Positions 30,056-60,100 of a DNA stretch of 64,000 nucleotides are shown here, in pieces. Source of the stretch: a virus; the IMG/VR virus record IMGVR_UViG_3300006175_000002, positions 1 through 64,000 of that record; one strand, given 5' to 3'. The position numbers and the translations under genes are program-made. Within the stretch, counting starts at the first letter, position 1; each line of letters begins with the position of its first letter. The notes beneath the pieces were generated by a model that did not search any database, was not told the DNA's origin, and saw nothing but the letters and a program-made list of their open reading frames with translations.

Positions 30056-30353
30056 GCAGCAGCGTCGGCCACGCGTCGGGGTGCGGGTCCAGGACCATGT
30101 TCCCCTCGTTGTCGTAGATCGGGGTGGCGGTGTTCGGGTTGGTGCGGACTCGCCAGCAGTTCCAGTCGATGCCGTCAGGGTCTTCGTGGGACACCTCGAG
30201 TACGCGGGCGGCGACGACGGGGCCGTTGTCGACTGCGCGGTAGAACACGCTGTCCCCGACGGCGGGGATCGGGGTGCGGTGTTCCTCGGGACGCCACCGG
30301 GCCCAGGTGATGGCTTCGGGGGGGTGGCGGTGCTCGGGGCCGGTGGCGCTCAT
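29898..30353 (-). CDS. Hypothetical tail-region protein
   Basis: TGATG overlap with the upstream tail gene. Confidence 0.55.
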   Translation of the reverse strand: MSATGPEHRHPPEAITWARWRPEEHRTPIPAVGDSVFYRAVDNGPVVAARVLEVSHEDPDGIDWNCWRVRTNPNTATPIYDNEGNMVLDPHPDAWPTLLLKVDGQASHVMTREARLHRSAGWLPMDWRDRYRWGDEHRNVRRDESHGVLPV

Positions 30354-33300: not shown

Positions 33301-33571
33301 CCTGTAGCAGGCACTGCCGGTACGGGGCCACGTTCGGGTAGTACGGGCTGCTGGTGTTGGCGGGGTTGAGGTACTCGTTGACGTCCTGAACGATCATCGT
33401 CGGGGCGCCGGCCTGCGTCTGGTTCAGCTCGTACTGCCGGCCACGGGTGGCCTGGTTCAACACGCGCAGGTAGGTGGTCTGGTCCACCCAGATCGGTACC
33501 GCGCCTGGGTCGCCGGGGTCGCAGTTGAACGTGAACAAGTACCGCAGGTCGGGGCGCCAGTTCGCTGTCAC
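30353..33571 (-). CDS. Minor tail protein with LamG/carbohydrate-binding inserts
   Basis: Follows the tape measure gene; RGRQYEL, P..YWPL.E, LamG-like region. Confidence 0.8.
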   Translation of the reverse strand: MTANWRPDLRYLFTFNCDPGDPGAVPIWVDQTTYLRVLNQATRGRQYELNQTQAGAPTMIVQDVNEYLNPANTSSPYYPNVAPYRQCLLQAMWANPGSGNLINTNARAQVTGTPAGVAYDPSFENQTTGATVPWISIVGDPDLSPDPVVSTTTPRTGTKDVTYTVSSGGLSAENQGMSFPVPCTPGVQYTTSGYIRQSSANTQTCAIIDQNLVIDAFNRTTASGWGTADYGGAWTVSGTAADYSTTAGTSLTIPWLGAAAQSNAAVNTVHLSTASSSILDSDQRVTVTVPVVAAGAEIDAGIVSRFVDASNYYFAEVRFNTDGTVGLRVQRRVTGTTTSVATATLPFTYIAGTSVQMRFKTDGTLLRAKAWILGTVEPSDWTIGVFDANLLTAGGLGCRSVLNASNTNTLPVALTFSSYTAVGSVVGSSTTTTGAYVRLSVTYTATQPFHNFALYVPATNSAGLDGTIFVDDIQHEEAGSASTFTTTGTVLYPVLRDYVERWPSAWQTNSQGFEGLAGITCVDAFGPLNMTPLATAYMTAVLATDPAYYWPLWEPQGTQTFGEISGNNGPPMVVVSASTTAGGTATAGDATGILGDPNGSGVTTAGGTSTNHGVTLQSTPTQPLAIPSVGATWAVSFAIWVVTTDTTNTFGFVDLANITTGNMTSLLRTAFGDLHPFSGTVYTPAAGGSSTADASGTYTDGLPHLFVVTNSLAADSFVTNLYIDGTLNVSNTSTASVVFGTSTPAFNLNVAEIAGGNFGGDIGDGVNATYAHMAIWLRVLTATEVSNLYQAGTGWSGETSGQRITRYLTGATMNASFSVAPTYPGPTNIDPFALSVMGPDDLTAGTDVLTACQNVATTENGVFWVGPTGAATFAGREIRYLETSSSYTFGENVAGGEFPYQPEILFDFDPTLVYETVQVTNSDGIIAVATPTSPAYARRFFNRGYTRTINVLDDNEAVDAANYLLNQHKQPTQRVDKIELNPVSYPTLWPLVLTIEIGTRVTVKRRAKAGNSGVGLTMSADYFVEKVSHDGVDMAASTWKTTLQLSPVDISQVWILENTTYGVLDSTTILGY

Positions 33572-44275: not shown

Positions 44276-46150
44276 TCAGGACCAGGTGCCGGTCGACCCG
44301 GAACGGTCGCTGGCCTGGATGCCCTGAAGGATCGCCGAGTACTGCGGCGCGTTCGCAACGACCGCGCCGTAGGTGAACATCGAGTACCGGAACGTCGCGT
44401 CGATGACCGGCCACGAGATCGACAGGTAGTCCTGGACCAGGTTCACCTCGAACGCGTTGCCCACGTTCGACCAGCCGAACGGCAGGTTGTACGACATCAG
44501 CAGAACGGTGCCCTGCGGGAACCACGGGTGGACCAGGATCCGCACAATGCTGCGCGTAACCGGGTTGACGAACTCGCTGACCGCCGCACCAGCCCGGACG
44601 CCGGGGGTGTCGGTCGGCTGAATGAACAGCCGGTAGTTCGTCGCGTTGCCCGACTGCACGATGTCGTCGGAGAGACGCATGATGTCGCCGCCCTCACCGA
44701 CCAACTCGGCCGGGTCGGCGCGGAACGCGCCGGAGCCGTCGTAGACACCCTTCAACGCGTTGTTGATGACCGAAATGCCGAGGGTGTCGCCCACGGACTG
44801 GTTGATGTAGCCGCCCTGCCAACCGGTCGGGTAGATGTTCCCCGCCGAGTGACCGGAAATGACCGACACCAAGCCCTCCTGGCTGTACGCCGAAGAGGTA
44901 CCTGTGTCCGACGACGGGGCCAGCGTGCCGGTGGTTGGTACCGCACCCTGCAAGGTGTAGTTCAAACCGCCGACCTTGGACACCATGATGTGGTAGGTGC
45001 TTGCCGCCGGGGCCGAACCCACCGACACGTAGATGTTGTACCAAAGCGCCCCGGCGACCGGTGCGATCTGCACATCCACCACGCTCGTGCCGGACGTCAC
45101 GGACGACGCGGCAGCAGCAGTCGACACCGCAGTCTCGCCGAACCATGTGGCGGCCGACACCTTGACGTCGAGGATGTTGCTCGTGATCGTGCCCGACAGC
45201 GCCGTCTCACCGGAGTTCGCGGCGCGGGTTGTCACGGTCGGGGCCGAAGGAGTGGTCAGCGCGGTGGAGGTACCCGCGATGTCCATGTACTCCTCGCCGA
45301 GCATGAACTCCTGCAAGAGGATGAGGTTCGCCAGGCCGGCGACGTCCTCGAAGCCCTGACCGGCGAACTGGGCCAGCCACGACACGTTCTCAGACAGACC
45401 GCTGAACCGGTACGGGACGAGGATGTTCACGGAGTCCTGCACACCCGATGGGGGCAGGTTCAACGGCCAGTTGTTCATGTTCGGTGAGCCGGACACCAGC
45501 TCGGGGATACCGAGGTTGACGACCTGACCACCGCTGGATCCGGTCTGGCTGCCGGAGATCCCGGTAACGACCTTCTCTTGGTACGAGGTGCCCTGACCCT
45601 GGGTGCGGGGCAGCTTGTTCCGGAACGGCGTGTACACCGGGTAGATCAGCCGGGTCGGTGCGACCAGGTTGTACGGCACGAGGCCGGTCGCGTTCGGGGC
45701 GGTGAGGGTGAAGTTCTTGCCGGTGAACTGCGTCAGTTGCTGCTGCAACTGGGCGGTCCACGCGTCCATCATGGCCTGCTGCGGCGTGTTCCCGAGGAAC
45801 GACCCGAAGCCCTTCCGGAATTCGGGGGTGAGGGTCTTGTAGACCTCACCGGGCGCGGCGAGGCTGCTGCGGACCGCGGCCTTCCACGCCTTCTCGGCCC
45901 GCATCGCCCGGGAGAACACCTTCTCCGGGTCGGTGAGTGGCTGGTTCGCGCCGGGGTTGATACCGCCGACGTACGCCTTGTCGGTGACGGCGTACCCGGC
46001 ACCCTTGACGAGGGTTGTCATGGCCTCGGTGAGGCGCTGCGCGGCGCGGCTGGGGGTGCCCGGGTCCTCACCGAACCCGCCGGTGATGGCGTAGTCGGGG
46101 TCCAGGCCGGTGGCCGCGGGCGCGACCACCGTTGCGACGTCTGTACTCAT
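44276..46150 (-). CDS. Major capsid protein with N-terminal delta region and FN3-like insertion
   Basis: Follows the protease; YNL.AP...YPV.TPFRN.LPR, M..EE...G.., I..HPW.PQG. Confidence 0.85.
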   Translation of the reverse strand: MSTDVATVVAPAATGLDPDYAITGGFGEDPGTPSRAAQRLTEAMTTLVKGAGYAVTDKAYVGGINPGANQPLTDPEKVFSRAMRAEKAWKAAVRSSLAAPGEVYKTLTPEFRKGFGSFLGNTPQQAMMDAWTAQLQQQLTQFTGKNFTLTAPNATGLVPYNLVAPTRLIYPVYTPFRNKLPRTQGQGTSYQEKVVTGISGSQTGSSGGQVVNLGIPELVSGSPNMNNWPLNLPPSGVQDSVNILVPYRFSGLSENVSWLAQFAGQGFEDVAGLANLILLQEFMLGEEYMDIAGTSTALTTPSAPTVTTRAANSGETALSGTITSNILDVKVSAATWFGETAVSTAAAASSVTSGTSVVDVQIAPVAGALWYNIYVSVGSAPAASTYHIMVSKVGGLNYTLQGAVPTTGTLAPSSDTGTSSAYSQEGLVSVISGHSAGNIYPTGWQGGYINQSVGDTLGISVINNALKGVYDGSGAFRADPAELVGEGGDIMRLSDDIVQSGNATNYRLFIQPTDTPGVRAGAAVSEFVNPVTRSIVRILVHPWFPQGTVLLMSYNLPFGWSNVGNAFEVNLVQDYLSISWPVIDATFRYSMFTYGAVVANAPQYSAILQGIQASDRSGSTGTWS

Positions 46151-46176: not shown

Positions 46177-49100
46177 CTAGCTGATTTTCGTGAGCAGTCG
46201 ACCCAACTGGTCTTCTGCCTGCTCGCGGATGGTCGGGTTGTCGGACCCGGCCATCTTTTGCAGGTAAGTGACGTAGTCGGCGTCGGCTGCCGCTTTTTGC
46301 AGTTGTGCCTGTTCGACCAGCGAAACGCGTTCCACGGGAACGATGGCGGGTGCTGTCGTCTGGGCTTTCGCGACGGTGACCGCGCCCCGGATCGGGGCCT
46401 GGGTCGGGTCGGGTGCTGCTCCCAACTCGTCGATTTCGGCGCGCAACGCGTCGATCTCGCGGCGGTGACTCTTGGTGGCCTTGACCACGGCGGACTTGAC
46501 GGCGCCCTTGATGAGCTGGGCGAGGGCGTACTCGTTGAGTCCGGCCGCCACGGGCGGCTGCTCGTCGTAGTCGTCGTCGCTGTAGCTCTTGGTGGCGTAG
46601 GCGATCGCGGCCGGGTCGGTGGGGTGGGGTCGGCTGGTGGCCTGCATGTCGGCGGGCATCACGGGCCGCGACTCGGCCATGGGGCACATGCCGGGAATCG
46701 TGGCCACCAAGTGGTCGTGCAACGCCTTCATTGTGGTCGCGACCGCGGCGCGGCTCGCGGTGGTGTAGAAGTCGCGGGCGGCGCCGGACGCGGTCGATGT
46801 GGTGGGCAGGTTATCGCCCCGGTCCGACGGTGACTGCGCCTGGTGCCCTTCGGTGATCAAGCCGCGGTGGAAGTCGTCGGGGTGGATGGTGTGCGCCACG
46901 GGCGGCACCATCGGGATCCGGGTCGCGGGGGCCGTCATGGTGGCGTGGCCGGCGGCGATGTAGCCGCGCCGGTAGTCCTCAGGCTGCGGCGGTGGCCCGA
47001 AACTCTTCGCGACCATGTCGGCGCGGGCGTCGGCGAGCATCGCCGGCTCGAGGTGTTGGACGATGATGTCGGCGTTGTCGTGGAGGACACCGGCGTACAC
47101 AACCTCGGTGGTGTTGCCCGTTTCGGCGGCCTTGAGGACGAGGGTGTCGAACACGGACGGGTCAACGGCGTCGGCGACGCTGCTGAGCGCCGGGTAGGCC
47201 TGGGTGACGGCGCCCCATTCGTAGGCGGGGCACAGCGCGTCGTGCATGCGTTGGGTGGCGTAGGTCTTCATCACGCTCGCCGAGACGTGGTCGTGTTCGA
47301 TGTCGGGTGTGGTGGTCATGCCTGCGTCGGCCTCCAGTGCTTCGACGGCGTCGCCGTCCGGCTCGCGGTGCGGCCCGGCGGGTAGGACGTCGGGCGGCAG
47401 GAGCCGCTTCTTGTCGGATGGGGGGGCGGTGCTCTTAGCCATGTCGACTCCTGCTGCCTTGATTCTGTGAATGCCGCGTAGTTTCGCGTTCCGGCCGTAC
47501 GCTCCGGCGAGTTCGTCAACGAGCATGGGTTTAGTGAAGGGCTTGCCGTTGCTGCGTTTCGTGTCAACGTTCCACCGGTCGGCGAGCGCCCGAAGTTCGG
47601 CCGCCTTCATGCCGCCCATGATTGAGGCGGCCGCATCGCGGTTGGATGCTCCGGCGAGTTTGCGCCACGCGGCGTCGCCCGGGTGCTCGCCCTGACTGAC
47701 CGATGCTCGGGCTGCTTCGTCGCGCGCCGCCTGCGATCCGGGCATCGCCCGGACCGGTCCGTGGCCGAGCGGAGTAGATCCGGACAGTGTTCGGACGGGA
47801 GGCGCGTCGATCATGCCGCCGCCGCGTCGCATCCGCGCCTCATGCGCCGCCTGGTTGCCTTGGACGGTGGGGTAGATGCCCATGCCGGTCGAGTCGCCGA
47901 GCCGCCCCACCTTCGCGTCGTGCTCAGCGCGGAACCGGGCCACCGCCTGCTCCACGGCCGCCGCCTGCTCCTCGCGGGTTAGTTTCCGGGGCCCGGACGC
48001 GTCGTGAATCTGGTTGCTGCCGTGCCCGTACGGGTTGATCGCGAACGAGTTCTCGAGCGCGCGGCGGTGTCGGTGTTCCCCGACCTGCCCGGCGATCTCG
48101 TGGGCCGGTGCGCCGCGGCGGGGCTTCACACCCTCCCGACGGGCCTCGGCCTGCCACGCGGGGCGGGACCGGCCGTCGAACGAGTCGTGACCGGGCCCCT
48201 TCGCCGGCTTCGCCCCACCCAACAGTTCGGTGTGGCGCTGCTCCCGCGCCTCCGCGAAGTGTCGGGCCGCGATCTCCCCGGCACGGGCCGCGGTCGTCGG
48301 CACCCGCTTCTGCGGCTTCTTGCCGTCGGCTTCCGCCCGTGCCCACTCCGCGCGTACCTCCTGCTCGATGCGGTGTTGCCTCTCAGTAAGGGCACGGTCG
48401 GCGTCATGCGTAGCCGGCACGTTACTGTCGTCCTCCGGTACCGGCCGTGCGTTGCCATGCGTGGACGGCACATTCCCGATGAACGAACCCGCCTTCGGCT
48501 CCGTTTCCTTACCGTGCCGCCGCTCCAACCGCTTCCGCTGCTCGTTCGCCTGCATCACGTGATGCATCGCCTGATCGTGCTGGCCGTGGGCGGCCTCGTC
48601 GTGCGCCATCGCCAAATGCTGATGCAGGTTCCGTTCCGCGACGGTCATCTTCCCCGACGTCGACGGCGCGCCGCTGGTGATCCTCCCGGCGTGCTCCATC
48701 AACCGGTCCGCCAACGCCTTATCCTTGTCGGAGTTGGCAACCATCGACGCCGCGTGCAGGTGGTTCGTCGCCTCAGCCCACTTGCCCTTAGCCATCGCCT
48801 CATGGTGGGCCTTCATGTGCCCATGCAGCCGCGGGTTCGGACCGGGCCCCACCCAGATCCAACCGTGTTTCCACTCGTGGACACCGGCCTTCGTCAGCAA
48901 CGCCTGCGCAGCCTTGCCGAGCATCTTCGGCAGCTTCTTCCCACAATCAGCGCAGCGCCGCGCGCCCGGCTCGTTGCTGGCACCGCACTTGAAACACTTC
49001 AACCCGCCGGCCTTCGTCACCATCGTGGCCTTCGGGAGTTTCTTGCCGCACCCCTCACACTTGCGGGTCTTCGCGTCCGCGTCATACGCCCGGCCGCACC

Positions 49101-50409
49101 CCTTGCACGACTTGCCGCCCTTGGTGAGGTCGGCCTCCATCATGTCCGTCTTCTCGTCCTCATCGTCGTCGATGGGGTCGTGGCGGAACGGGCGCTGCTG
49201 GCCTTGCAGGTTGTACGGCGCCAACCCGGTCGGATTCGGTGACGTTGTGGTGAAGTTCTTCCCCGTCCACGACTCCGGCAATGCCGCCTCGAACTCCGGA
49301 CCCTTCCGGCGAGCGATCGCGCGGAGCCGGGCCTTGAACTTACGCATCGGAATCAGCGGCTTCGCCCGGCCGTAGCTGGATACCGCGTCGGACACGTCAC
49401 CGGGGGAGTGGATCGGGAACCGGCGCCCGTCCGGGTCGATGAAGTCCTGCGCGTCCATCGCGTCCCGGTCGACGCCGCCACCCACGTTCGGGTCGACGTT
49501 GCGTTTCGCCAACCATGTCTGGTAGCCCTGCGCGGTACCGTCCAACCCCAACTCGTGGCCCTCAGCGTCCCACGCCTCCCACTGGCTCATCGCGGCCATC
49601 TTCGCCAGGAACGCGGTACCGGGGCCGATGTCGCTGGCGGGGGCCTTCGGTTCCCGGGCCAACCAGTCGGCGCGGGCCGTAGCGTACGACTTCTGCGTGT
49701 CCTCGGGCTCGCCGTCGTCTTTCTTGCCGTCGCCGTTGTCGCCGCCGTCGGTGTCGTCTTCCTGCTCCTGCACGTCCTCGTCCTGAGCGTCGTCAGCTTC
49801 CGCCTTGCCGCCCTTCGCGTCGCCCTCGTCGGGCTTGCCGCCCTTGGTCACCAGCGCCGCCGCCTCGGCCTTCACGAGCAGGTCAACAAGGTCACCGTGA
49901 GTCCACGCCGCGTCGTCGCCGGCGGATTTGACCAGCGTGATCCCGCACCCGTCGTTCGCGGGCCGGTCCACGAGGCTGATCTCCGCTACTTCCCCGCCGG
50001 TCACGATCCCACCACGCGCCTTACCGGTGAGGTCCCGTTTGATCGTGGGCCGGGCGATCCCGACGGAGTAGGCGCGGAGCACACCGGCGCGGACCAGTTT
50101 CATCGCGGTCGGTTCCACGATCAGCGACTTCACCCAGTGCCCGCCGTCGCCGTCGCGGTCAACCTCGACGGAAACACCGCGGCCGGCTGGATAGAGCTGT
50201 GGATTATGGGAGACGCGTACGTTTCCGCCCGTCTCGAGCCATTTCTGGATCGCCGATCCGGACCACTCCGGCGAGACAACTTGATCATCGGCATCGACAC
50301 GACCATCGCTCGCCTTGCCATAGACCATGATGCCGTCGTCGACCTCCTCCATCTTGGCGATGGGGATGCTCATGTAGAGCTTGTGGTCTGCTGCCAAGGT
50401 GGCGGCCAT
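46177..50409 (-). CDS. HK97-type prohead protease fused to a long scaffold/mosaic extension (DUF6582-like domain, double Zn ribbon, HGW module)
   Basis: VYG.AS...D.D.Q, SH, YSVG, EISLVDRPAN; 1410 aa. Confidence 0.85.
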   Translation of the reverse strand: MAATLAADHKLYMSIPIAKMEEVDDGIMVYGKASDGRVDADDQVVSPEWSGSAIQKWLETGGNVRVSHNPQLYPAGRGVSVEVDRDGDGGHWVKSLIVEPTAMKLVRAGVLRAYSVGIARPTIKRDLTGKARGGIVTGGEVAEISLVDRPANDGCGITLVKSAGDDAAWTHGDLVDLLVKAEAAALVTKGGKPDEGDAKGGKAEADDAQDEDVQEQEDDTDGGDNGDGKKDDGEPEDTQKSYATARADWLAREPKAPASDIGPGTAFLAKMAAMSQWEAWDAEGHELGLDGTAQGYQTWLAKRNVDPNVGGGVDRDAMDAQDFIDPDGRRFPIHSPGDVSDAVSSYGRAKPLIPMRKFKARLRAIARRKGPEFEAALPESWTGKNFTTTSPNPTGLAPYNLQGQQRPFRHDPIDDDEDEKTDMMEADLTKGGKSCKGCGRAYDADAKTRKCEGCGKKLPKATMVTKAGGLKCFKCGASNEPGARRCADCGKKLPKMLGKAAQALLTKAGVHEWKHGWIWVGPGPNPRLHGHMKAHHEAMAKGKWAEATNHLHAASMVANSDKDKALADRLMEHAGRITSGAPSTSGKMTVAERNLHQHLAMAHDEAAHGQHDQAMHHVMQANEQRKRLERRHGKETEPKAGSFIGNVPSTHGNARPVPEDDSNVPATHDADRALTERQHRIEQEVRAEWARAEADGKKPQKRVPTTAARAGEIAARHFAEAREQRHTELLGGAKPAKGPGHDSFDGRSRPAWQAEARREGVKPRRGAPAHEIAGQVGEHRHRRALENSFAINPYGHGSNQIHDASGPRKLTREEQAAAVEQAVARFRAEHDAKVGRLGDSTGMGIYPTVQGNQAAHEARMRRGGGMIDAPPVRTLSGSTPLGHGPVRAMPGSQAARDEAARASVSQGEHPGDAAWRKLAGASNRDAAASIMGGMKAAELRALADRWNVDTKRSNGKPFTKPMLVDELAGAYGRNAKLRGIHRIKAAGVDMAKSTAPPSDKKRLLPPDVLPAGPHREPDGDAVEALEADAGMTTTPDIEHDHVSASVMKTYATQRMHDALCPAYEWGAVTQAYPALSSVADAVDPSVFDTLVLKAAETGNTTEVVYAGVLHDNADIIVQHLEPAMLADARADMVAKSFGPPPQPEDYRRGYIAAGHATMTAPATRIPMVPPVAHTIHPDDFHRGLITEGHQAQSPSDRGDNLPTTSTASGAARDFYTTASRAAVATTMKALHDHLVATIPGMCPMAESRPVMPADMQATSRPHPTDPAAIAYATKSYSDDDYDEQPPVAAGLNEYALAQLIKGAVKSAVVKATKSHRREIDALRAEIDELGAAPDPTQAPIRGAVTVAKAQTTAPAIVPVERVSLVEQAQLQKAAADADYVTYLQKMAGSDNPTIREQAEDQLGRLLTKIS

Positions 50410-50486
50410 CGCGACTCCTTACTTCGACATTGGTGCGCAAGAGATCTGCGCACCCGACAGGGCGCGCTGATGGAGGGGGTGGCGGG

Positions 50487-53400
50487 TCAGGCGGCGAGGA
50501 GTACGGTGCGGGCTTTCCACACGTACTCGGCGGCGCGGAGGATCATGCTGTATTCGTCGGCGGTCAACGCGGCCTTGTTCGCGGAGCCTTGCGCCTGGGC
50601 GCGGCGTACCCGCTCCTCCCAGTCGGCTTCGATCCGGTTCGCGACTTCGGTGTAGAGCTTGGCCATGTCCTGCCACGTCTTGTACCGGTTGTCGTAGCGG
50701 CCGAGGTCGCTGGCGTCGGCGTCGGCGATGTTGCGTTGCCGTAGCTCGGCGGCTTCCCGCAACCGCTGCACGGCTTCGGTGGGGGACAGCCGGTTCGCGA
50801 CGGAGGTGTTGCGGTGGAAGCCTTGCAGGATCTGTTGCAGCGTCGAGTCTGCCGCCTGGGTGGTGCCGTACTGGTTGGTCAGGCCGGATGGTACGCCGAG
50901 CCCGTCGGCGGCTTCTGTGATGTGCTGGGCAACGTTGGCCGGGGTGAACGGCATGGGTTTGGGTCCGTACCGGTGGACGTGGGCTTGTTCCGCGGCGGCG
51001 TGGGCGAGGCTGCCGGTGGTGTGGTTGGTGGAGTCGTGCGAGACGAGTTTGGTACTGCCGCGCCGTTCAGGTTCGACAACGATCGCCGAGTACGGATCTG
51101 AGGGTTTGCGCTCATCAGGTACGACCCATGCCCGGTTCGTGCCGGGTGCGGCGTCCCAGACCCGTCCGGTGCGTTGACTGGTGGTGCCGTCTTCGTGGTG
51201 GTGGGTCCAGGCAACCTTGGCGCCGGGGTCCAGGCCGGTCGGTTCAACGTAGTTGACCTCGGCGGGGGCTTTCGGAGCGAGGCCATGGGTACCACGGCGG
51301 GCCGGCTTCGGGATCAGCGACGGCAGCGGCTTCACCTTGACCGGTGGGGCGTCCTTCACGTGGGGTTGCAGGACGGCCTTGATTTCCTCCAGCGACCCGA
51401 ACGGCTTCCCCTCGTTGTCGGACGCCTGGGGCCGGTCGGGGTGCCACCGGTTCGCGCGGGCAGCGGCGATGGCTGGACCCTCGTCGATCGTGCCGGTCGG
51501 GAGGACATGGAACTTGTCGCGGTTGAAGCCGGCAGGGACCTTGACGGGGCTGCTGGTCGGGTGGTCGCCGAGGTCGCCGTACCGCAGCGGATGGTACGTC
51601 TTGACTTCACCGTCCTTGCTGGCGCTGGCCACGCGAACCAACTCGAACTGCTTGCCCTCCTGCCGGCCGCCGCCCTGGTGGTACGTGGTGGACGTGGTTT
51701 CGCGGATGGCGAGGTCACCATGCTTGGCGCGGGCGCCGGTGACTACCGGCCGGCTGGCGGCGAGCGCCTGCCGGGCCGCTGCGGCGCGGGTCGCTTGCTC
51801 GGCTGCGGCGGCTTCCGCCCGGACTCGTTCGGCGGCGGCCTGCGCCTGCATCTCCTTGACCTTGGCGGCTTCGCCTGCGAGGACCTTTGCGTCTTCGTCG
51901 GTGGGCTTGACGTGGATCTGGTTCAGCGGTACCCAGTTCGGGTACTTCCGCTCGCCTTCGGTGGAAACCACGGCGCCGTCGATGCCGTGGTTTCGTTCGA
52001 GTCGTACGACGTGGCCGGTGCTGAACCCACCGTGCTTGACTCGGTCGCCGGCCTGGACCGGGCGGGATGAGCGGGTGGCGGGCATCGTGAACTCGTGCGC
52101 GTCGTTCGGCCGGGCCGGCTCGCCGAGCGAGGCAGGCAGGTCGGTCTGCGACACCCGTGGCATCTCGGTGCCGGTACGCCCGAACACGCTGCCCGGCTTG
52201 CGTAGCTGCCCGGTCCGCTCCTTGTAGCCGACGGATTGGTTAACCAACTGTTCGATCAAGTCGGCTTTCTTCGTCTTCCTGGGGCCGAATGATCGGTAAT
52301 TGTGCTGACGCCGGTAGGAGTCGTTGATGTCGCGCAACTCGGTCATGCTGCGACCTTGGAGCATCGCCCTAGCCTGGTCCTTGCTGGTGGCCTCGTGGAG
52401 TCGCCTGGATACCTGCCACGATTCTTCTTTGGGCGGCTCGGGCGGCTTGACAATGCTCTCCGGCACCGCGACGGCAACGGCTGGCGCCTCCGCCTTCGGT
52501 GTCGCCGGCCGGTGGTCGGTGACCCGCGCCCACGGGTATTTGACGTCCATGCCGCGACCGGCGTCGATCTGGACGGTCTTCTCGTTGGCTTTCTGGACCC
52601 GCCACCACGTTCCGTCGACCTTGATAGCGTCCCCGGCCGACACGGTGTGCTTGCTGTACTTGCCGGCGGCGTCCCGCCGGGCGGTCAACTCCTTGAGTTG
52701 CGCCTCGGCGCGGATGTGCTGCGACTGGGCTGCGTCCCGCGCTTTGCGCGCCTCGACGTAGCGGCTCAGTTGCGCATCAGTGCTGCCCCGCCGGCCACCG
52801 CCGCTGCCGCCGGTACCGAGGGGGAAGTGTTCCCCGAGTGCTTCGGCTTTCGGGTCACGGGATGCCGCCTGAAATGCTGCCTCGGCCCGGTCGAGGCGTT
52901 CCCGGGTGACCTTGACGCGGGCCTCAGCATCGGCGATCTTACGGTCACCACCCGATGGCGCCGCCGCCGGCAGGTCGGCCTTTTGGCGCTCGATCTCGCT
53001 CCGGATCTGGTCGTACAGGCTCCGCGGCGGGGGGTTGGCCGTGTTCGCGAACACGGCGTCCAGGTTCTCGTCGGTGGGTTCATCCGTGCGCCCCTCGCGC
53101 ACCACGTCCGCGATCCACTTGCCGGCGAACGACGAGGCGCGGCTCTGGTCCTTGGCCTCTTGCGACCCCCGCGCAGGTACCGCCGCTGCCGGAGTTGGCG
53201 CAACGGGCGCCGGCGGCTTGACTACCGCCGCCGGGCCCATGCGGTCCGTCTGCACCTGCGCATCCGCCGCCAGCCGATGCTCCGACTCGGACAGTGGGCG
53301 CTTCTTCGACGCGTTGTGCGCCACCCGGGACACGAAACTCATCCGCTCCGGCCCGGTAGCGGAATGCTCGAACGCCGCCTTGTGACCCGAGGAGAAGTGA

Positions 53401-53633
53401 ACCTCGCTGGTCTTCTTCCCCGCCCGTACCACCCTGCCGTGCCCGTGCGTCGGGTGGTGCACCAGCGAACCGACACCGGGTGCCCCGACGAAGATCCAGC
53501 CGTGTTCGTAGCCCTTCGGGCCGACCTTCAGCAGCTCCGCCCGTGCCTGCTCGCAGACCATCGGATCCGCCGACTTCGTCAGCCCAACTAGGTACGCCAC
53601 GTACTCCTCGTCGACCAGTACGGCAGTGTCCAC
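50487..53633 (-). CDS. Large mosaic head-associated protein (putative internal cargo)
   Basis: Scaffold-like N-terminal tag, LLKVGPKGYEHGW, several SH3/Tudor-like and HEH-like modules. Confidence 0.7.
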   Translation of the reverse strand: MDTAVLVDEEYVAYLVGLTKSADPMVCEQARAELLKVGPKGYEHGWIFVGAPGVGSLVHHPTHGHGRVVRAGKKTSEVHFSSGHKAAFEHSATGPERMSFVSRVAHNASKKRPLSESEHRLAADAQVQTDRMGPAAVVKPPAPVAPTPAAAVPARGSQEAKDQSRASSFAGKWIADVVREGRTDEPTDENLDAVFANTANPPPRSLYDQIRSEIERQKADLPAAAPSGGDRKIADAEARVKVTRERLDRAEAAFQAASRDPKAEALGEHFPLGTGGSGGGRRGSTDAQLSRYVEARKARDAAQSQHIRAEAQLKELTARRDAAGKYSKHTVSAGDAIKVDGTWWRVQKANEKTVQIDAGRGMDVKYPWARVTDHRPATPKAEAPAVAVAVPESIVKPPEPPKEESWQVSRRLHEATSKDQARAMLQGRSMTELRDINDSYRRQHNYRSFGPRKTKKADLIEQLVNQSVGYKERTGQLRKPGSVFGRTGTEMPRVSQTDLPASLGEPARPNDAHEFTMPATRSSRPVQAGDRVKHGGFSTGHVVRLERNHGIDGAVVSTEGERKYPNWVPLNQIHVKPTDEDAKVLAGEAAKVKEMQAQAAAERVRAEAAAAEQATRAAAARQALAASRPVVTGARAKHGDLAIRETTSTTYHQGGGRQEGKQFELVRVASASKDGEVKTYHPLRYGDLGDHPTSSPVKVPAGFNRDKFHVLPTGTIDEGPAIAAARANRWHPDRPQASDNEGKPFGSLEEIKAVLQPHVKDAPPVKVKPLPSLIPKPARRGTHGLAPKAPAEVNYVEPTGLDPGAKVAWTHHHEDGTTSQRTGRVWDAAPGTNRAWVVPDERKPSDPYSAIVVEPERRGSTKLVSHDSTNHTTGSLAHAAAEQAHVHRYGPKPMPFTPANVAQHITEAADGLGVPSGLTNQYGTTQAADSTLQQILQGFHRNTSVANRLSPTEAVQRLREAAELRQRNIADADASDLGRYDNRYKTWQDMAKLYTEVANRIEADWEERVRRAQAQGSANKAALTADEYSMILRAAEYVWKARTVLLAA

Positions 53634-53636
53634 CGG

Positions 53637-55088
53637 TCATGCCCCCTTCGGCGGTTTCGGCAACGCGTTCGCGTACTGGTCAAGCTTCTCCGCCAACTCG
53701 CGGGCCTGAGCAGGCGTCAGGGACGACATCCACCCCTGCTCCCGCTCGTCCTGTGACATCGGATCCCACGGCTTATCGCCGCGCTCATGGGCGGTGACAC
53801 GAATGATCGGCTGGTCGCCGGTGGTGTCGAGGTGCATGTGCAGATCAGTCGGGTCCATGTCTAGGTCCCGCTTTTCCTTCACGACCCGGCGGAGCCGTTT
53901 CTCATCCACGCTCGATGCTGGGATATGCGGGGCGAGGAGGGCGAGGAGGTCCTTGTAGGTGATCGGTAGTTCCTCGCCGTCGATATCCATCTTGTCGCCG
54001 AGTTCGATCCGGTTCCGTTCGGCGTAGTTCTGGATCAGTTCGGCAGCGCGGGAGTGTTTCGTCGGCTTCGTGATGGTGGGTTTCTCACCCGACTCAGCAA
54101 TCGTGGCAAGGTCGCGGAGGTGGTCGGCGGCCTGGCGGGCGCCTTTCGCGTCGAGGTTGGCCGTCGATGGCGTCGTTGATCCGCTGGTGGTTTCGACACC
54201 GATTTCGGGGGCATCGTCGTCGTAGTTGAAGATGTGCAGATCAACGGGGGTGTTGCCGGTTTCGATGCGGTGGCTGGCGTGGTAGGTGATACCGGAATGA
54301 TTCGCCCGACCGCTGGTGTATCCGAGCGCATCATGCACACCCGCGTCGACGGGGATCCATCCGTGCCAGTACTTCTGGCCCGGCTTCGGGATCCGGTCCC
54401 CTTCCGCCTTGATTAGGGTGGCCGCCGCGTTCTTCTTCTTGACCTTGTGGCCCTTACCCCACGCCGCCGTGGCCGCCGACAGGGCTGTCTGCTCGGCAGA
54501 GATTCGGCTCTCGACGGCCTTCAGCGCGGCAACGGCCCCGACCCGGCGGCGAGCCATTGTGGCCTGCGTGTGGGCGGTCGCGTTGGCTTTGCCCGCTTCG
54601 GCGTCGAGCGCGGCGACCCGGGCGGCGAGTTTCGCCTGTCGGGCTTTGAGGTGGGCCATGGTGACGGCGATACGCAGGATCGCGGCGGCGGCAGCCCGTT
54701 TCGCCGGCGACATGTGCCGCATGCTGTTCGGGATGCCGTACTGTTTGCGGGCGGCTTCCCGGGCGGCGTGGGAGTCGGCGTAGCCGCTGTGTGCGGCATC
54801 GTCGCGGGCGAGCCGGTCAGCGACCTCGCCGCCCTGGACGGCGTCGTCGTAGCGGGACTGGGCATCGTGCTGGCGGCGTTCCCGCCCGCGGCGCTGCGAC
54901 GTTTCGGACGTGGTGGTAGTGGTACCACCAGTGGTCCACCGGCCGGCGGCGCGGGGTTCGGCGAGGTTGAACCCGTACTTGAGGAGCGTGTCACGGGCCT
55001 GCTCCGCGGTGGTGCGGTCAGCGGATTTGGTGAGCACTGTGAGGTAGGCGATGTACTCGTCGGGGTCGACGTTGGTTAGGACAGCCAC
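53637..55088 (-). CDS. Mosaic head-associated protein (putative internal cargo)
   Basis: Same N-terminal tag; LLKYGFN...PR..GRW; LIK...YWHGWIP. Confidence 0.7.
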   Translation of the reverse strand: MAVLTNVDPDEYIAYLTVLTKSADRTTAEQARDTLLKYGFNLAEPRAAGRWTTGGTTTTTSETSQRRGRERRQHDAQSRYDDAVQGGEVADRLARDDAAHSGYADSHAAREAARKQYGIPNSMRHMSPAKRAAAAAILRIAVTMAHLKARQAKLAARVAALDAEAGKANATAHTQATMARRRVGAVAALKAVESRISAEQTALSAATAAWGKGHKVKKKNAAATLIKAEGDRIPKPGQKYWHGWIPVDAGVHDALGYTSGRANHSGITYHASHRIETGNTPVDLHIFNYDDDAPEIGVETTSGSTTPSTANLDAKGARQAADHLRDLATIAESGEKPTITKPTKHSRAAELIQNYAERNRIELGDKMDIDGEELPITYKDLLALLAPHIPASSVDEKRLRRVVKEKRDLDMDPTDLHMHLDTTGDQPIIRVTAHERGDKPWDPMSQDEREQGWMSSLTPAQARELAEKLDQYANALPKPPKGA

Positions 55089-58000
55089 GGTGTCATCTCC
55101 CTAACCAGGTCGGGCTTCTTCATACGTTTCACCTCGTCGCGCCCGCCGAGCGTGCCGACGATGCCGTGCAGGCGGGCCAGCTCGCGGAGCGCGGCGACGG
55201 GGAGCGCCTTGAGGGTGGTTTCGGTGTCGCCGCCGGCCCGCAGGTGCTGGAGGGCTTCCTGGGCGGCTTCGGTCGGACCCAACTTCGTCGGCTTCGGGGC
55301 GGTAATCGGGTCCAGGCGCTGCCCCTGGCCCGGTACGCGTTCCTCGATCTTGATGTCGTGGGCTGCGTCCACGATCGGCATGCGGCGCTCGCGGCGCCGC
55401 TGGTTCTCGGGGCCGCCGTTGATCCGGTCAATGTGGTGCTGGCGCAGCGCCAGGGCTTCCTCTTCGCTGCCGGCGTGGCCGAGGACAGCGGTCGTCTGGC
55501 CACGGTTGTTGACCTGCACCACCTGGTACTGCACCGGCCCGGCCGGGCTCGGCGGGGTTTCAGCGGCGCGTACCGCGGCCGGACGGCGCCCACGGGGCGC
55601 GATCGCGACCCGGGCCGGCACGTCCGGGGTACCCGCCGGCTGGACCGTAGCCCGTGACACCGGCACCCGCTCCCCGCCGGGCAGGGTCGCCACGTGCCCA
55701 GGCCGGACGATCTCCACCTGGCTGCCTTCACGCAACGGCTGCCCGAACGGATCGTGCGCGCCCCGATTGAACGGCACAACCTCGCCGGCGGAGCCGACCC
55801 GCTCGAGGCCGGCCTGGGTCGCCATATGGTCGGCGGCGGCGAGGAGGGTGGGCGGGTCGTCGGCGAGGGTGGCGAGGTGGGTGGTGTCGACCCCGACGCG
55901 GTTGCCGTGGGCGGTGATGCGGGCCCGTAGGGCCTGCGGTGAGGCGCCGTGGTTGACCAGTTCGTGGGCTTCGGCGACGACACCACCGACGGCGCGGGCC
56001 CGGTCGATGTGGGCCTGCCGGGTCCGGGCGGCGTCCTCCGCCGAAACGGTTGGCGTTCGCCGTTCCCGGATGGCTGCCGCTGTTTCCCGGATGTGCGTGG
56101 GCGCGCCGGGCCGGTCCATGGCGAGGATGCGATCCTCCGCCGCCCGAGTTACTTCCGACGCCACCGCAGGCGTGGCCGCCAACTGGTCGGCCCGGGCCCG
56201 CATCTCGTCGACCTGCTGTTGCTGCTCGAGTCGCCGCTGCCATTCGGCGGTCGTGGCGCCCTGGCCGGTACCGACCGGGCCGGCGGGTGTGTGGTGGCGG
56301 CGGCTGGTGGATCCGGCGGCGGGTAGCCCAGCGTCCAGGGCGCGCTGCCGAGCTGCGGCGTGGACGCGCAGCGCCTCGGCCTCCATACGCGGCGACACCA
56401 CCGGTGCGGCGGGTGCGGGTGTTGGCATGACCCGGTCGAGCAGTTCCGGGGATGCGTTCCCGCGTCGCAGCAACTCCACCTCAGTCGCCGCCGCGCTCAG
56501 CCGGTCGCCGAGCGGGGTGCCGCGATGCCGGCGCGCCTCCTGCTGCAACACCGCCGCCTCATACCCCCGGCCGCGCTGCGCGCCCGCCAGCGTGCGGAGC
56601 ACCTCCGACGTGGCCGGCTTGCCCCGCAGGGGCTGCGTAAACCGCGGGTCGGCCTCCATCTCGCGGCTGAGGTTCGCCAGGTAGGCGGACTCAACTGACC
56701 GGGCCCGGACCACGTTGCCGGGCAACACCTGCTCCGTGGTGCCATCGGCGAACCGGACCGTGGCGAGATGATGGCCGCCGACGCGGGCGGTGCCGATGTC
56801 GAGGACGGTGGCCTGCTGGTCGGTGCGGTTGTGAAGGGTGGTGGCGATGGTGACGGTGTCGCCGGGGACGAGAGCCGTTCCGTGGGCGTCGGTTTCCGGT
56901 TCCACCCCGGAGCGTGTCAGCGGCTGAATGCCTGGTGTCGGCGCGGTGTTACCTCGCCCCATCGCAATCATGTGGCGGTCGCTGTCACCGAGCCGGACCG
57001 CTGCCGCCCGGTCCCGCGAACGCAACGCCCTAGTGTTGTCGACCGGGGCCACGCGTACGCCGGGCTCCCGGGCCAACTCGCCAAGGGCCGCATCCACCTC
57101 GCCCCGGTTCAGGTCGCCGAGGTCGTCACGTAGATCGGCCAAACCAACCCAGCCGCCGGGAGCCTTGGGTCGCGCGTCGTAGGCAGCCCGAACGCGATCT
57201 TTTACCTCAGCCGTCGACCTAGTCGCCGACAAGGGTGTGACGTGGGTGCCGGGCGCCACGTACGCCACTCCCCGCCATCCGTTCGCACCACCAGGCGTTT
57301 CCGTGACCTGTACCGCGACCGCGTCACGCTTCTTACGCCCGCGGGCCCCGATGCGTACCCCGGTCGGCTGGGACACGTAGCCGCGCAGGGTGATCGGTTT
57401 CCCGTACTGGTCCTCGCCGACCACCTCGGCGTAGTTGCCGTGCTTCAACTGCTCCACCGGGACCGTTGTGGCCGGCGGGGGTAGGCGCTCGAGCCAGTTT
57501 CCGCCGCGCATAGCCGCCGAGTCGAGACGCGCCCCGACGGTGGCGTGGACGATTCCCTCCCGGCGCTGCCCCACCGGCCCCCGACTGACTGACAGGTGAT
57601 CGGCGAGGGCTTGCAGCTCTTTGCCCTTGATGCCGGCCACGTACTGGCGGGCCTCGTCCCGCGACGACATGGCGTGCAACCGGTCGTAGTGCTCGGCCGG
57701 GGTGGGTGTGCGGGGCACCGTATGCGTCAACTCGCGGGGCAGCCCTGGCGGGAAAACGTCGGGCGTGATGTCCTCTGGCCCTTTGCCGAGGCCGAGCCAC
57801 CGGTTGCGTTCCTCTGGGGGCATGGCGTCCCAGATTCGCAGCTTCTGGGCGTTCGTGTACTTCCGGGGCCGCGCCATCGGCGTCTCGGGCTTCTTCGGCG
57901 CGGCGCCCGGTGGGACGTAGCCGGACAGCATGTCTGCGGACACCATGCCACCGCTACCGTCGTCGAACTCCACATGGTGGGCGCTGCCGCCGCCAGCGCG

Positions 58001-58861
58001 GCCGGTGGAGTCCATGTCGTCGGGTCCGCCGTAGATGACCGGGCCACGGTTCCGGTGGATGAGTCGGTCCCCGACCTTCCACCCCGACCGGATCTGCGTA
58101 TCCCGGGCAGCATGCCCCGTCAGCTCGGGCGTTGCCGGCTTGGCTGCTGCTTCCAGCCGCGCGGCGAGCGCCCCGGCCCGGGTGTGGATCTCGTCGCCCG
58201 GCTGGCTCCGACGCGGCCCCTGCAACCGGGCCAACGCCTCCCGAACCGCAGTCCTGTCCTCGTCGGACATCGCCCGCCAGTCCGGGCCGGTCAACGCCTC
58301 CATGGGCCGTATCGCGCTGTACGGGTTGCCGCTCCACGAATGGGTCGCCGCTTCCCTCGCCCGCTCGATCCGGGCCGACTGGCCACCAGCAGCGACCGCG
58401 GCGCGGGACGCGTCCCGCGCCGCCCGCTCCTCCGGGCCGGTCCCCGAGCCGTGCCCGGGTCGGCCGATGAAGTGCGACCCGCCTACGCCCGGCGCTTCCG
58501 GCTTGTGCTCGAACGCGTGGTACCCCGAGTCGAACTGGATCCCGACCGTTTTCGATCCCCGGCGGGTCATCACGCCGCGGCCCAGTTCGGGGTGATGCAC
58601 CTCGAACGGGTGCGTCAGCTTCGCCGGCCCGACGTAGATCCACCCGTGGATGTAGCCCTTCGGACCGACTTTGATCAGATCAGCGGTGACCGTCTTCACC
58701 CACGTCGGGTACGGCAACTCCAACCCGAACGCGTCGCCCTCACCAGCCCACTCCGACCACGCCGCCCGGCCCAGCCCACCCATCTTCGACAGGGCAGGCT
58801 CCCGCGCCGACCAGTCAGCGCGCAACTCCTGGTACACGGCCAGCAGCGACGTGTCAGTCAC
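55076..58861 (-). CDS. Large mosaic head-associated protein (putative internal cargo)
   Basis: N-terminus resembles an internal protease segment; LIKVGPKGYIHGW; Tudor-like, wHTH, GrpE-like and HEH-like modules. Confidence 0.7.
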   Translation of the reverse strand: MTDTSLLAVYQELRADWSAREPALSKMGGLGRAAWSEWAGEGDAFGLELPYPTWVKTVTADLIKVGPKGYIHGWIYVGPAKLTHPFEVHHPELGRGVMTRRGSKTVGIQFDSGYHAFEHKPEAPGVGGSHFIGRPGHGSGTGPEERAARDASRAAVAAGGQSARIERAREAATHSWSGNPYSAIRPMEALTGPDWRAMSDEDRTAVREALARLQGPRRSQPGDEIHTRAGALAARLEAAAKPATPELTGHAARDTQIRSGWKVGDRLIHRNRGPVIYGGPDDMDSTGRAGGGSAHHVEFDDGSGGMVSADMLSGYVPPGAAPKKPETPMARPRKYTNAQKLRIWDAMPPEERNRWLGLGKGPEDITPDVFPPGLPRELTHTVPRTPTPAEHYDRLHAMSSRDEARQYVAGIKGKELQALADHLSVSRGPVGQRREGIVHATVGARLDSAAMRGGNWLERLPPPATTVPVEQLKHGNYAEVVGEDQYGKPITLRGYVSQPTGVRIGARGRKKRDAVAVQVTETPGGANGWRGVAYVAPGTHVTPLSATRSTAEVKDRVRAAYDARPKAPGGWVGLADLRDDLGDLNRGEVDAALGELAREPGVRVAPVDNTRALRSRDRAAAVRLGDSDRHMIAMGRGNTAPTPGIQPLTRSGVEPETDAHGTALVPGDTVTIATTLHNRTDQQATVLDIGTARVGGHHLATVRFADGTTEQVLPGNVVRARSVESAYLANLSREMEADPRFTQPLRGKPATSEVLRTLAGAQRGRGYEAAVLQQEARRHRGTPLGDRLSAAATEVELLRRGNASPELLDRVMPTPAPAAPVVSPRMEAEALRVHAAARQRALDAGLPAAGSTSRRHHTPAGPVGTGQGATTAEWQRRLEQQQQVDEMRARADQLAATPAVASEVTRAAEDRILAMDRPGAPTHIRETAAAIRERRTPTVSAEDAARTRQAHIDRARAVGGVVAEAHELVNHGASPQALRARITAHGNRVGVDTTHLATLADDPPTLLAAADHMATQAGLERVGSAGEVVPFNRGAHDPFGQPLREGSQVEIVRPGHVATLPGGERVPVSRATVQPAGTPDVPARVAIAPRGRRPAAVRAAETPPSPAGPVQYQVVQVNNRGQTTAVLGHAGSEEEALALRQHHIDRINGGPENQRRRERRMPIVDAAHDIKIEERVPGQGQRLDPITAPKPTKLGPTEAAQEALQHLRAGGDTETTLKALPVAALRELARLHGIVGTLGGRDEVKRMKKPDLVREMTPWLS

Positions 58862-58903: not shown

Positions 58904-60100
58904 TTACTTATGGCCGCGTTCCATTGCGGCGTGTGTGGCCGGGTAGAACCCGAGGGCCCCCTTGTGGCGCAGGTTGCAGAACCCCTTGGCCTGGTCCGGG
59001 CGCATGTGCTCCGCCGCGATCGCCACGCACCGGTCGAAGTCGCCGTCCGTGCCCCACCCGATTCGGGCTGCGCCTTCGCCGTGCTCGTACCAGCGGATCA
59101 GATGCCGGGCCCGGTACTCGCCCACGTCACCCTCGTGGTCTTTGGTGAGCAGGGCGCGGCGGGCCAGCTCCTCCACGAGCTGGATGCCTTTGGGGGTCAG
59201 GAACTGGCCGTCTGCGACCTTGTCGGCGTGCTGCTCGTGGTGCAGGGCGTGTTGTAGGTTCTTCGCGGCTTCCTCGACGGTGATCCCGGCGGCGTCGGCG
59301 GCGGCTTGCAGGTCCTCGATCGTGATGTGCCGGTGGTCGTCGTGTCCGTTGTGCGGCATGTCGCAGCCGCAGGTAAGGCACTTGTTGATCGGCGCCGCGG
59401 GTAGCAATCTAAGGATCTTCCCGAGATCGTCACCAAGCTCCGGGCGCAACGCCGGATTGTCAGCCAAGTGCGCCGGATCCCACCACACGAGGGCTTCGAT
59501 CCGGTCCCGGTCCGGGTCGTCCGGGTTCGTCACGTGATCCCGGTCGCCAAAGATCGGCACGTCCGCCTCATGCGGGATCGTGAGGACGTAACCGTGGTAC
59601 ACGCCGTTATCGCTGACCCACTCCCCGCCCGGCGTGCCCTTCGGCACAGGGCAGCCCGTCTCCTCCGCCCACTCGCGGCGAGCAGCGTCGATCGGCTTCT
59701 CCCCGGGGTCTAGTCGCCCACCGGGGAACTCCCACGTCCCCGCGGCCGGGTCCTCGTCGCCGTCCTCCGGCAGGGCGCGCTGAAGCATCAGAACCCGGCC
59801 CGTGTCGGCGGCGCGCACAGCCAGGCCTGCCGCGTCGGGGGTCTTCCCCGCCTTCGTCGCTGGCTTGTCCGAACCGGCACCACCCATGATTTCCTGTGCC
59901 CGCTGGTGGAACTCGTCGTCGTCGCCGTCGATGTCCACGTAGTGCAGGTTGTAGTCCGACTTCGCCCCCCGCGGGTGGAACGGGCCGTCAAGGTGCCGCT
60001 GCGACCACTGATCCTGCCACGTGGCAAGCGCGGCGAGCCGTTGGCGTACGTCGTCAGGCGGCGGCACAGGGGGTGTGGTGTGGCGTTTCTTCACAGCCAT
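58904..60100 (-). CDS. NUDIX hydrolase-domain head protein with additional Cys/His domains
   Basis: WEFPGGRLDPGE....AARREWAEETG Nudix box; C..CGC; WG..GDF.RC...C..H. Confidence 0.85.
   Translation of the reverse strand: MAVKKRHTTPPVPPPDDVRQRLAALATWQDQWSQRHLDGPFHPRGAKSDYNLHYVDIDGDDDEFHQRAQEIMGGAGSDKPATKAGKTPDAAGLAVRAADTGRVLMLQRALPEDGDEDPAAGTWEFPGGRLDPGEKPIDAARREWAEETGCPVPKGTPGGEWVSDNGVYHGYVLTIPHEADVPIFGDRDHVTNPDDPDRDRIEALVWWDPAHLADNPALRPELGDDLGKILRLLPAAPINKCLTCGCDMPHNGHDDHRHITIEDLQAAADAAGITVEEAAKNLQHALHHEQHADKVADGQFLTPKGIQLVEELARRALLTKDHEGDVGEYRARHLIRWYEHGEGAARIGWGTDGDFDRCVAIAAEHMRPDQAKGFCNLRHKGALGFYPATHAAMERGHK

Follow-up and report, generated by a model that had tools for sequence, protein, structure and literature searches.

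In phage T4 the prohead protease gp21 cuts off a capsid-targeting sequence (CTS) carried by the internal proteins IPI-III and Alt (Mullaney & Black 1996, as cited in PMC5694885), and the same article describes long propeptides on the ejection proteins of SPN3US and phiKZ-like phages, with T4 and SPN3US as the precedents for targeting leaders removed by a protease (PMC5694885). Here we analysed the first 64,000 nucleotides (64 kb; the window) of the IMG/VR virus record IMGVR_UViG_3300006175_000002, which is 103,389 bp long, uncultured and rated complete, with 110-bp direct terminal repeats and a G+C content of ~67%. The window is the head-assembly module of this high-GC tailed phage, and three large proteins encoded in it, A1048, B483 and C1261, begin with segments (tags) that are homologous to parts of the protease-scaffold fusion protein of the same phage. 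The system is a variant of the T4 capsid-targeting principle outside the T4 family.

As in T4, an N-terminal leader is common to otherwise unrelated head-internal proteins, with the leaders conserved and the bodies diverged; its end is marked by a short site found repeatedly in head proteins, and the proposed order of events is loading, clipping and ejection. Unlike in T4, the putative protease is HK97/S78-like rather than gp21 and the candidate sites end in Lys, not in Glu ((L/I)xE). Instead of a 10-residue peptide joining the gp22 core, the leader is a stretch of 30-60 residues with homology to the scaffold C-terminus and a predicted helix-turn-helix fold, and behind it comes a long conserved junction motif.

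C-terminal capsid-binding ends occur in the P22 scaffold gp8 (a helix-turn-helix), in P2 gpO, in the lambda C/Nu3 fusions, in the tail of HK97 gp4 and in herpesvirus UL26/UL26.5. In P22 a basic coat-binding surface pairs with the acidic N-arm of the coat protein, in herpesviruses cleavage frees the scaffold from the shell, and the C-terminal tail of HK97 gp4 has been reported to bring foreign proteins into proheads. The scaffold end is not known to be copied onto the N-termini of other genes in P22, P2, lambda, HK97 or the herpesviruses. The protein described here is like P2 gpO and lambda C/Nu3 in that a putative protease is fused to a scaffold, the major capsid gene comes immediately after the gene for the fusion, and the C-terminal end, presumed to bind the shell, is conserved. 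It is like the P22 scaffold in its predicted terminal helix-turn-helix and unlike it in that this element is acidic and has no basic surface. No sequence homology to the scaffold or protease ends of P22, P2, lambda, HK97 or the herpesviruses was found. Encapsulin cargo-loading peptides are short, usually C-terminal and uncleaved, and work with no protease, scaffold or DNA; the likeness to them (a portable tag, the interior of an HK97-fold shell, diverse cargo) is a functional analogy only, and no homology to these peptides was found.

A further group for comparison is that of the polyvalent proteins, which are predicted to be packaged in the head and injected and in which portal or MuF is combined with ADP-ribosyltransferase, NUDIX, 2H or ParB-like domains, as described in passages of Iyer et al. 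(2017, PMC5512222). The protein family reported below shows the same architectures, likewise in head modules, and differs in the scaffold-derived N-terminal tag of some of its members, of which the passages concerned of PMC5512222 give no instance.

Results

Homology between the tags and the protease-scaffold

All features for which coordinates are given lie on the minus strand. Directly upstream of the major capsid gene is the gene for the protease-scaffold fusion protein (1410 aa; 46177..50409), and beyond it lie the genes for A1048 (1048 aa; 50487..53633), whose GTG start overlaps the B483 stop, B483 (483 aa; 53637..55088) and C1261 (1261 aa; 55076..58861). A preliminary description of this DNA had claimed that the scaffold C-terminus reappears as the N-termini of A1048 and B483 and that the N-terminus of C1261 matches an internal scaffold segment, and the three similarities were recovered where it had placed them. 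The scaffold C-terminal element (DADYVTYLQKMAGSDNPTIREQAEDQLGRLLTK; residues 1376-1408, ending two residues before the stop; 46186..46284) aligned in pairwise BLASTP to the N-terminus of A1048 (11/27 identical, E 4e-4) and to that of B483 (10/25 identical, E 0.002). The N-terminus of C1261 aligned to the segment RADWLAREP...YQTW (scaffold residues 242-306; 49492..49686) with E 1e-5. The tags are residues 1-36 of A1048 (53526..53633; found by both profile and BLASTP searches and predicted to form a helix-turn-helix), residues 1-37 of B483 (54978..55088), which end in LLK and are followed by YGFNLAEPRAAGRW, and residues 1-64 of C1261 (LRADWSAREP...YPTW...DLIK; 58670..58861).

Profile searches covered all 1504 six-frame open reading frames (ORFs) of the 103-kb genome. 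A hidden Markov model (HMM) derived solely from the C-terminal scaffold ends of six other phages matched the scaffold (6.5e-20), residues 9-37 of A1048 (5.2e-7) and B483 (5.9e-5), the next match having an E of 1.8. The reciprocal HMM, built from the N-terminal tags of seven other phages' proteins, matched A1048 (5e-16), B483 (1.4e-11) and the scaffold C-terminus (1.2e-6), followed by a match at E 3. Likewise, an HMM of the internal segment from four relatives matched the N-terminus of C1261 at 1.9e-6 (next E 0.054). The preliminary description had allowed that the similarity might prove insignificant in profile alignment; it is significant in both directions. Judged by this homology, the scaffold C-terminal element is the source type of the A1048 and B483 tags. 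A regular-expression (regex) scan for the tag opening motif [ED][YF][IV]xYL in the six frames of the genome returned the three tag places only (scaffold, A1048 and B483), and A1048 and B483 have nothing in common but the tag.

Most synonymous sites differ among the three DNA copies of the tag, which indicates that the tags are old and have been maintained as protein. The identity of the tags is ~66% to the tags of other phages versus ~41% to their own scaffold. Given that the DNA has diverged and that the tags are nearer to those of other phages, they constitute an old lineage of their own, and a recent duplication as their origin was rejected on the same grounds. Of the earlier claim that the tags are derived from the scaffold, the homology to scaffold segments therefore stands, whereas the tags are not recent copies.

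Occurrence of the tags in other phages

It had been suggested that an HMM of the tag might find it at the head of diverse genes in other phages, and this is what was observed. The scaffold-only HMM matched residues ~4-40 of 20 non-scaffold proteins, which were A1048, B483 and 18 proteins of other phages (258-1084 aa; at least 18 clusters) that differ in their downstream parts. Its only other matches were the extreme C-termini of protease-scaffolds (P0001, P0012, L040 and L051). In A1048, B483, C1261 and the 18 further proteins the tag starts 4-12 residues from the start codon, and the Lys at the tag end is invariant. The tagged proteins in one alignment (A8) continue into ParB-like (DGHHR), P-loop-like and other parts. 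The B483 tag is kept in the orthologs P0167, P0168, P0171 and P0173, the C1261-type tag is also found on P0135, P0160 and P0064, and one contig (L090) has two consecutive tagged genes, as here, and ends before the scaffold. On the scaffold side, the C-terminal element recurs in conserved form in L003-L007, L010 and P0012, and the internal segment in L004, L006, L007, L010 and P0012. A search of metagenomes with the A1048 family alignment returned relatives at the level of the junction motif described below and no tagged orthologs.

A conserved junction motif follows the tag

The tag is followed, within a linker predicted to be disordered, by the junction motif (K/L)VGP(K/H)GYxHGW(I/V), and often then by a Tudor-like domain resembling those of UvrD and CarD. 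All five large head proteins share a junction of the form hydrophobic-hydrophobic-(T)-K followed by (V/A)G...(Y/W)xHGW(I/V). In A1048 the motif VGPKGYEHGWIFVGAPGVG and a small Tudor-like beta domain occupy residues 37-90 (53364..53525), and in C1261 the motif VGPKGYIHGWIYVG and a Tudor-like domain are at 58487..58669. The protease-scaffold has the motif as ALLTK followed by AGVHEWKHGWIWVGPGP (48841..48909), B483 has an internal junction, TLIK followed by AEGDRIPKPGQKYWHGWIPV (54339..54425), and a diverged motif, PGPRDWKEHPWSHGWVWHG, with a Tudor-like domain is located in the portal extension (60913..61140).

The junction motif and not the tag is the most conserved and general element of the system. 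With residues 1-130 of A1048 as the query, 38 proteins were found, and KVGPKGY(I/E)HGWIFVGAPGVG hardly varies among them. Run against 1.84 billion representatives, a 23-sequence profile gave a family of 426 clusters with E<=1e-3, of which 214 had E<=1e-10, and more than 60 IMG/VR loci carry the motif. Within the motif, third codon positions are free to vary, whereas the first and second are fixed. This indicated selection on the protein, and the idea that the motif is a recombination site at the DNA level was rejected for the same reason. Pfam has no model for the motif, a full-text search of the literature for the motif strings found nothing relevant, and a scan of 185,579 prokaryote species genomes for the motif in prophages gave no match.

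In 84 of the 139 listed members the motif is located no more than 75 residues from the N-terminus, behind a leader. Among the 46 proteins with an internal motif, Pfam domains included portal (11), MuF (10), ADP-ribosyltransferase (9, plus 3 Arr), NUDIX (8) and 2H phosphoesterase (6). In the window, only the portal extension qualifies as such a fusion of a head-incorporated domain to an effector-type part. One locus (L055; IMGVR_UViG_3300047576_000046) has 17 regex matches to the motif, in ORFs of up to 1918 aa. In this phage and in L046/L048, which are phages of ~95-132 kb, the 17 and 6 matches respectively fall in ~20-kb loci and are spaced 150-1000 residues apart in ORFs of up to 2028 aa, a spacing that suggests polyproteins.

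The leaders in front of the motif belong to several families: the scaffold-type helix-turn-helix tag, the C1261-type RADWSAREP tag, MIS...SADW...DDDHFW, MPDLTSGWGR, the 13-residue GFIxxVRAxLxK, and leaders of 3-10 residues only. GFIxxVRAxLxK is found on four consecutive head-module genes of IMGVR_UViG_3300034957_000013 (L053/L040/L004), directly before the motif, and resembles a short leader of the T4 kind in a phage closely related to this one. A relic-like fifth copy of it (AGFIDMVKESS) ends the NUDIX gene of the same genome. Given at least five other leader families in relatives, including those of 3-10 residues, the helix-turn-helix tag appears to be one of several ways in and not a universal signal. 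The earlier proposal that the tag is a packaging signal is accordingly to be narrowed: the tag is conserved and strictly terminal, but it is not universal. A screen of leaders against ORF C-termini in 34 motif loci gave mostly noise from high-GC reading frames.

A second type of junction, K-x-F-(N/D)-P-x-E-x-R-x-x-x-G-(R/E)-W, follows the Lys of the B483 tag (54960-54980 of the window; B483 residues 37-51). The orthologs of B483 retain the tag together with this other junction, as LLK followed by (Y/W)GFNPAEPR..GRW. It was also observed in P0028, P0045, P0046 and L090:8237-9628 (examples are LLKYGFNLAEPRAAGRW, LVKAFDPAEVRDDHGRW and AAKFNPGELRDDHGRW), and the L090 variant KFDPNQLRGPDGRW runs directly into a Tudor-like domain.

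Capsid protein, protease and gene fusions at the junction

The major capsid protein (624 aa; 44276..46150, with the ATG at 46150; phrog_13692, 2.3e-65) has an extra N-terminal region comprising the first ~145 residues, and the capsid fold starts near residue 149. A search found 37 loci related to it. One relative matched Pfam SU10_MCP (8.5e-5), and the Atlas model of the capsid protein matched a SU10_MCP cluster over residues 149-614 (TM 0.78). Where the two parts meet, residues 142-178 (FTGK followed by NFTLTAPNATGLVPYNL; 45617..45727) include a candidate maturation site after K145, and the pattern GK..TLT.P...GLVP is conserved across 16 capsid proteins. A copy of this N-arm junction is found in the scaffold at residues 381-410 (WTGK followed by NFTTTSPNPTGLAPYNL; 49180..49269; E 2e-7 against capsid residues 142-178), the common pattern being GK followed by NFT.T.PN.TGL.PYNL. 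An HMM of the segment from the L004 and L010 scaffolds, in both of which the copy is conserved, matched the capsid protein (8.9e-5). This scaffold copy is possibly a self-cleavage site or a pseudo-substrate that parts the protease from the scaffold.

The head maturation protease phrog_80 matched residues 17-210 of the protease-scaffold at 1.8e-4, phrog_21715 matched at 3.6e-15, and His68 and Ser115 are, by eye, in fitting local motifs. Related scaffolds are 800-1376 aa long with protease domains 52-60% identical to this one, and a protease of that identity is present in 4/5 other motif-bearing phages.

Relative to related scaffolds, residues ~467-1000 (47410..49011) are an insertion; the scaffold of IMGVR_UViG_3300034957_000013 (872 aa) aligned contiguously to residues 3-466 and 1001-1410 (tblastn). 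Another scaffold, P0012, also has an inserted module. Residues 496-621, which start with LLTK followed by AGVHEWKHGW, were homologous to a separate 1295-aa ORF of IMGVR_UViG_3300034957_000013 (tblastn), and this ORF opens with the 13-residue leader and the junction motif. In the same manner, P0169 and P0172, which are separate genes in other phages, begin exactly at the internal junction of B483. Gene fusion or fission has thus occurred exactly at the junction in both instances. Just ahead of the inserted module the scaffold has two zinc-ribbon motifs (CxxC...CxxC, twice; 48928-49107; Pfam DZR 8.5e-5, below cut-off), of which the second sits at the start of the insertion.

Predicted structure of the tag and of the domain that follows

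AlphaFold2 modelling of A1048 residues 1-110 with nine homologs predicted a helix at residues 9-18, a turn and a helix at residues 24-37 (pLDDT ~82); the helix-turn-helix at the scaffold terminus is assigned by homology with this modelled tag. The net charge of the tags and of the scaffold element, counted from the sequences, is ~-2 to -3. The KVGPKGY linker was predicted to be disordered (pLDDT <50), and HGWIFVG was predicted as the first strand of a small beta domain, with the module modelled alone giving the same four-stranded domain. This domain has ~40 residues and the pattern G.xVxHPxxGxGxV. In profile comparison it matched the C-terminal domain of Thermus thermophilus UvrD (PDB 7egt_B; E 1.2e-4) and, more weakly, Escherichia coli UvrD. 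The top Foldseek match was again 7egt_B, at a non-significant E of 0.22, and there was no Foldseek match at E<=0.001. The Pfam families CarD_TRCF_RID, RapA and PcrA/UvrD Tudor also matched, all below their curated cut-offs.

The Tudor-like domains of UvrD/PcrA, CarD/TRCF-RID and RapA bind RNA polymerase, whereas here the domain sits in phage head-module proteins. Given the resemblance to RNA-polymerase-binding domains, it is suggested, as a speculation from sequence likeness, that the released proteins might act on the host transcription machinery after ejection. The domain points to host RNA polymerase as a common target, which we offer as a lead and not as a result.

Discussion

A model for loading and release

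We propose that the tags load proteins into the procapsid and that the head protease frees them near the junction, a plausible reading that the comparative evidence supports in part and to which we give about an even chance. By analogy with P22 gp8, P2 gpO, the HK97 protease and herpesvirus scaffolds, the terminal helix-turn-helix would dock the scaffold inside the assembling shell. The helix-turn-helix tags of A1048 and B483 and the internal-segment tag of C1261 would then let these proteins co-assemble into the procapsid beside the scaffold or in competition with it. The tag ends in hydrophobic-hydrophobic-(T)-Lys, directly before what appears to be a flexible linker within the motif, and an HK97-type head protease may cut near hydrophobic-hydrophobic-K/VGPKGY and so detach the protein from what anchors it. 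Where a protein is fused to portal, MuF or scaffold, the fusion itself would bring it into the head, and release would occur at the same junction. Given that the same junction parts the units in these fused forms, there would be two routes to the head, direct fusion or a short leader. The freed proteins would finally be ejected.

Indirect support for cutting comes from the invariant Lys at the tag end, the disordered linker, the enrichment of K sites, the fusions and fissions at the junction, the shared protease, and the GK/N junction of the capsid protein at which the capsid fold begins. The K-site pattern [LIVM][LIVM]T?K was observed 25 times in seven head proteins compared with 10.3 +/- 3.0 in shuffles (0/500 shuffles reached 25). 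Several points weigh against the proposal. The shuffle control for the K sites ignores helical periodicity. Close relatives that share the scaffold end lack tagged genes in the 10 kb upstream, and ten related loci with ~3-10 kb of sequence ahead of the capsid gene held no N-terminal copies of their scaffold end (two further loci had <1 kb upstream). The tags resemble those of other phages more than their own scaffold, which gives no support to co-evolution with the cognate scaffold, and they are acidic, unlike the basic coat-binding domain of P22. The assignment of the protease is weak in Pfam (Peptidase_S78, E 0.085, below cut-off), and the residue preceding the motif is sometimes L or A and not K or R. 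The ~15 invariant residues of the motif far exceed the usual need of a protease site. Finally, some family members have leaders of 3-10 residues or an enzyme domain before the motif, so the tag is not needed in general, and the motif or the domain following it could be the loading signal.

This last point leads to the alternative that survives best, although we consider it unlikely: the junction motif, with or without the Tudor domain, would be the real signal for incorporation or anchoring in the head, for instance through contacts with the portal, protease or shell, and the tags would be accessory, perhaps affecting copy number or timing or acting as a chaperone-like prosegment. The motif is indeed the sole element common to all five head proteins. 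Its spread over 426 clusters with ~15 nearly invariant residues and free synonymous sites, its presence behind leaders of 3-10 residues and its many copies per phage (17 regex matches in L055) would all be expected of such a signal. On the other hand, in B483 and its orthologs the tag is joined to another junction (YGFNPAEPR..GRW), structure prediction gives a disordered motif region, and the motif sites are points of gene fusion and fission, which a boundary or cut site fits better than an anchor.

Less probable still, and in our view distinctly unlikely, is that the tagged proteins are auxiliary scaffold or internal-core proteins that help to build or size the head and are degraded or expelled at maturation instead of being delivered to the host. 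This would account for the scaffold segments that the tagged proteins share, for the homologous module inside the scaffold itself, and for the long, charged, low-complexity and scaffold-like regions in proteins for which no enzymatic domain was found (A1048, B483 and C1261). However, the motif family is joined to portal, to MuF and to effector-type domains (ADP-ribosyltransferase, NUDIX, 2H and ParB-like), a set of partners characteristic of proteins that are ejected (PMC5512222). The Tudor-like domain resembles those that bind RNA polymerase, and the downstream parts differ between phages, unlike those of core structural proteins.

We find it very unlikely that the helix-turn-helix has a role in regulation or inside the host cell, for instance as a module by which late proteins bind DNA or other proteins, and none in capsid loading. 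Helix-turn-helix hairpins are generic interaction modules, but this one is strictly terminal (C-terminal in scaffolds, N-terminal elsewhere), is followed by a constant K and the junction, and is confined to head-module genes. That the shared segments are functionless relics of recombination between neighbouring genes is highly improbable: phage head modules are mosaic and a relic-like leader copy ends the NUDIX gene of IMGVR_UViG_3300034957_000013, but the protein sequence has been preserved despite divergence of the DNA, and the tag recurs on the B483 orthologs and on no fewer than 18 additional clusters of other phages, without exception placed at the very N-terminus and terminated by K.

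If loading by tags and release at the junction is the correct reading, phages with HK97-type proteases would reuse the shell-binding end of their scaffold as a movable address label for capsid passengers. This would link scaffold-coat recognition, T4-style leaders and portal- or MuF-fused polyvalent effectors, which have so far been treated apart, and a folded tag of 36 residues with a junction of ~15 residues would be directly testable for the loading of foreign proteins. A wider form of the proposal, about which we are rather doubtful, is that the clade uses a portable code of three parts: an address (the helix-turn-helix, another leader, or a portal, MuF or scaffold fusion) that puts any protein into an HK97-fold procapsid, the junction (K/L)VGP(K/H)GYxHGW as a universal release point recognised by the head protease, and a Tudor adaptor that brings the freed protein to host RNA polymerase once it has been ejected. 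The large ORFs would then be polyproteins cut into several ejected effectors. The most useful by-product of the analysis is the junction-motif family, which is undescribed and is a new handle on packaged or ejected proteins in metagenomic phages.

Neighbouring genes and minor observations

Upstream of the tagged genes lies a gene for a NUDIX protein (58904..60148; Pfam NUDIX 1.4e-18), which separates them from the portal gene. This protein has neither tag nor junction motif, whereas in relatives NUDIX domains are fused to the motif; its C-terminal 65 residues match phrog_6439 (4.6e-18, function unknown). The portal protein (60091..63912; Pfam Phage_portal 1.5e-15; phrog_2662 3.3e-28) has a long C-terminal extension, and its frame is open beyond the window end to ~64626 of the genome, where it measures 1511 aa from stop to stop. 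Ahead of the diverged HGW/Tudor module, the extension has weak ParB-like (phrog_1033 1e-6; Pfam ParBc_2 0.03) and GNAT (0.021) matches.

Searches of PDB, Pfam, PHROG and Atlas gave no function and no recognisable effector domain for A1048, B483 or C1261. Past its N-terminal module A1048 had no relatives in Pfam, PHROG or PDB, and the C-terminal half of B483 is weakly DUF6907-like. Repeated short helix-extended-helix segments that by eye are SAP-like were seen in P0001 (~940-975), A1048 (~425-465) and C1261 (~405-440 and the C-terminus), for example KAAELRALADRWNV...KPMLVDEL and LPVAALRELARLHGI...KKPDLVREM. These segments, which had no Pfam match, could be DNA-binding.

Among cultured phages, the capsid protein had relatives only in Thermoanaerobacterium phage THSA-485A and two Brevundimonas phages, at 25-26% identity. 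From base composition, our guess is an actinobacterial host. The head module is followed downstream by two long ORFs of the minus strand (30353-36315), of 1072 and 915 aa, which are presumably tail genes.

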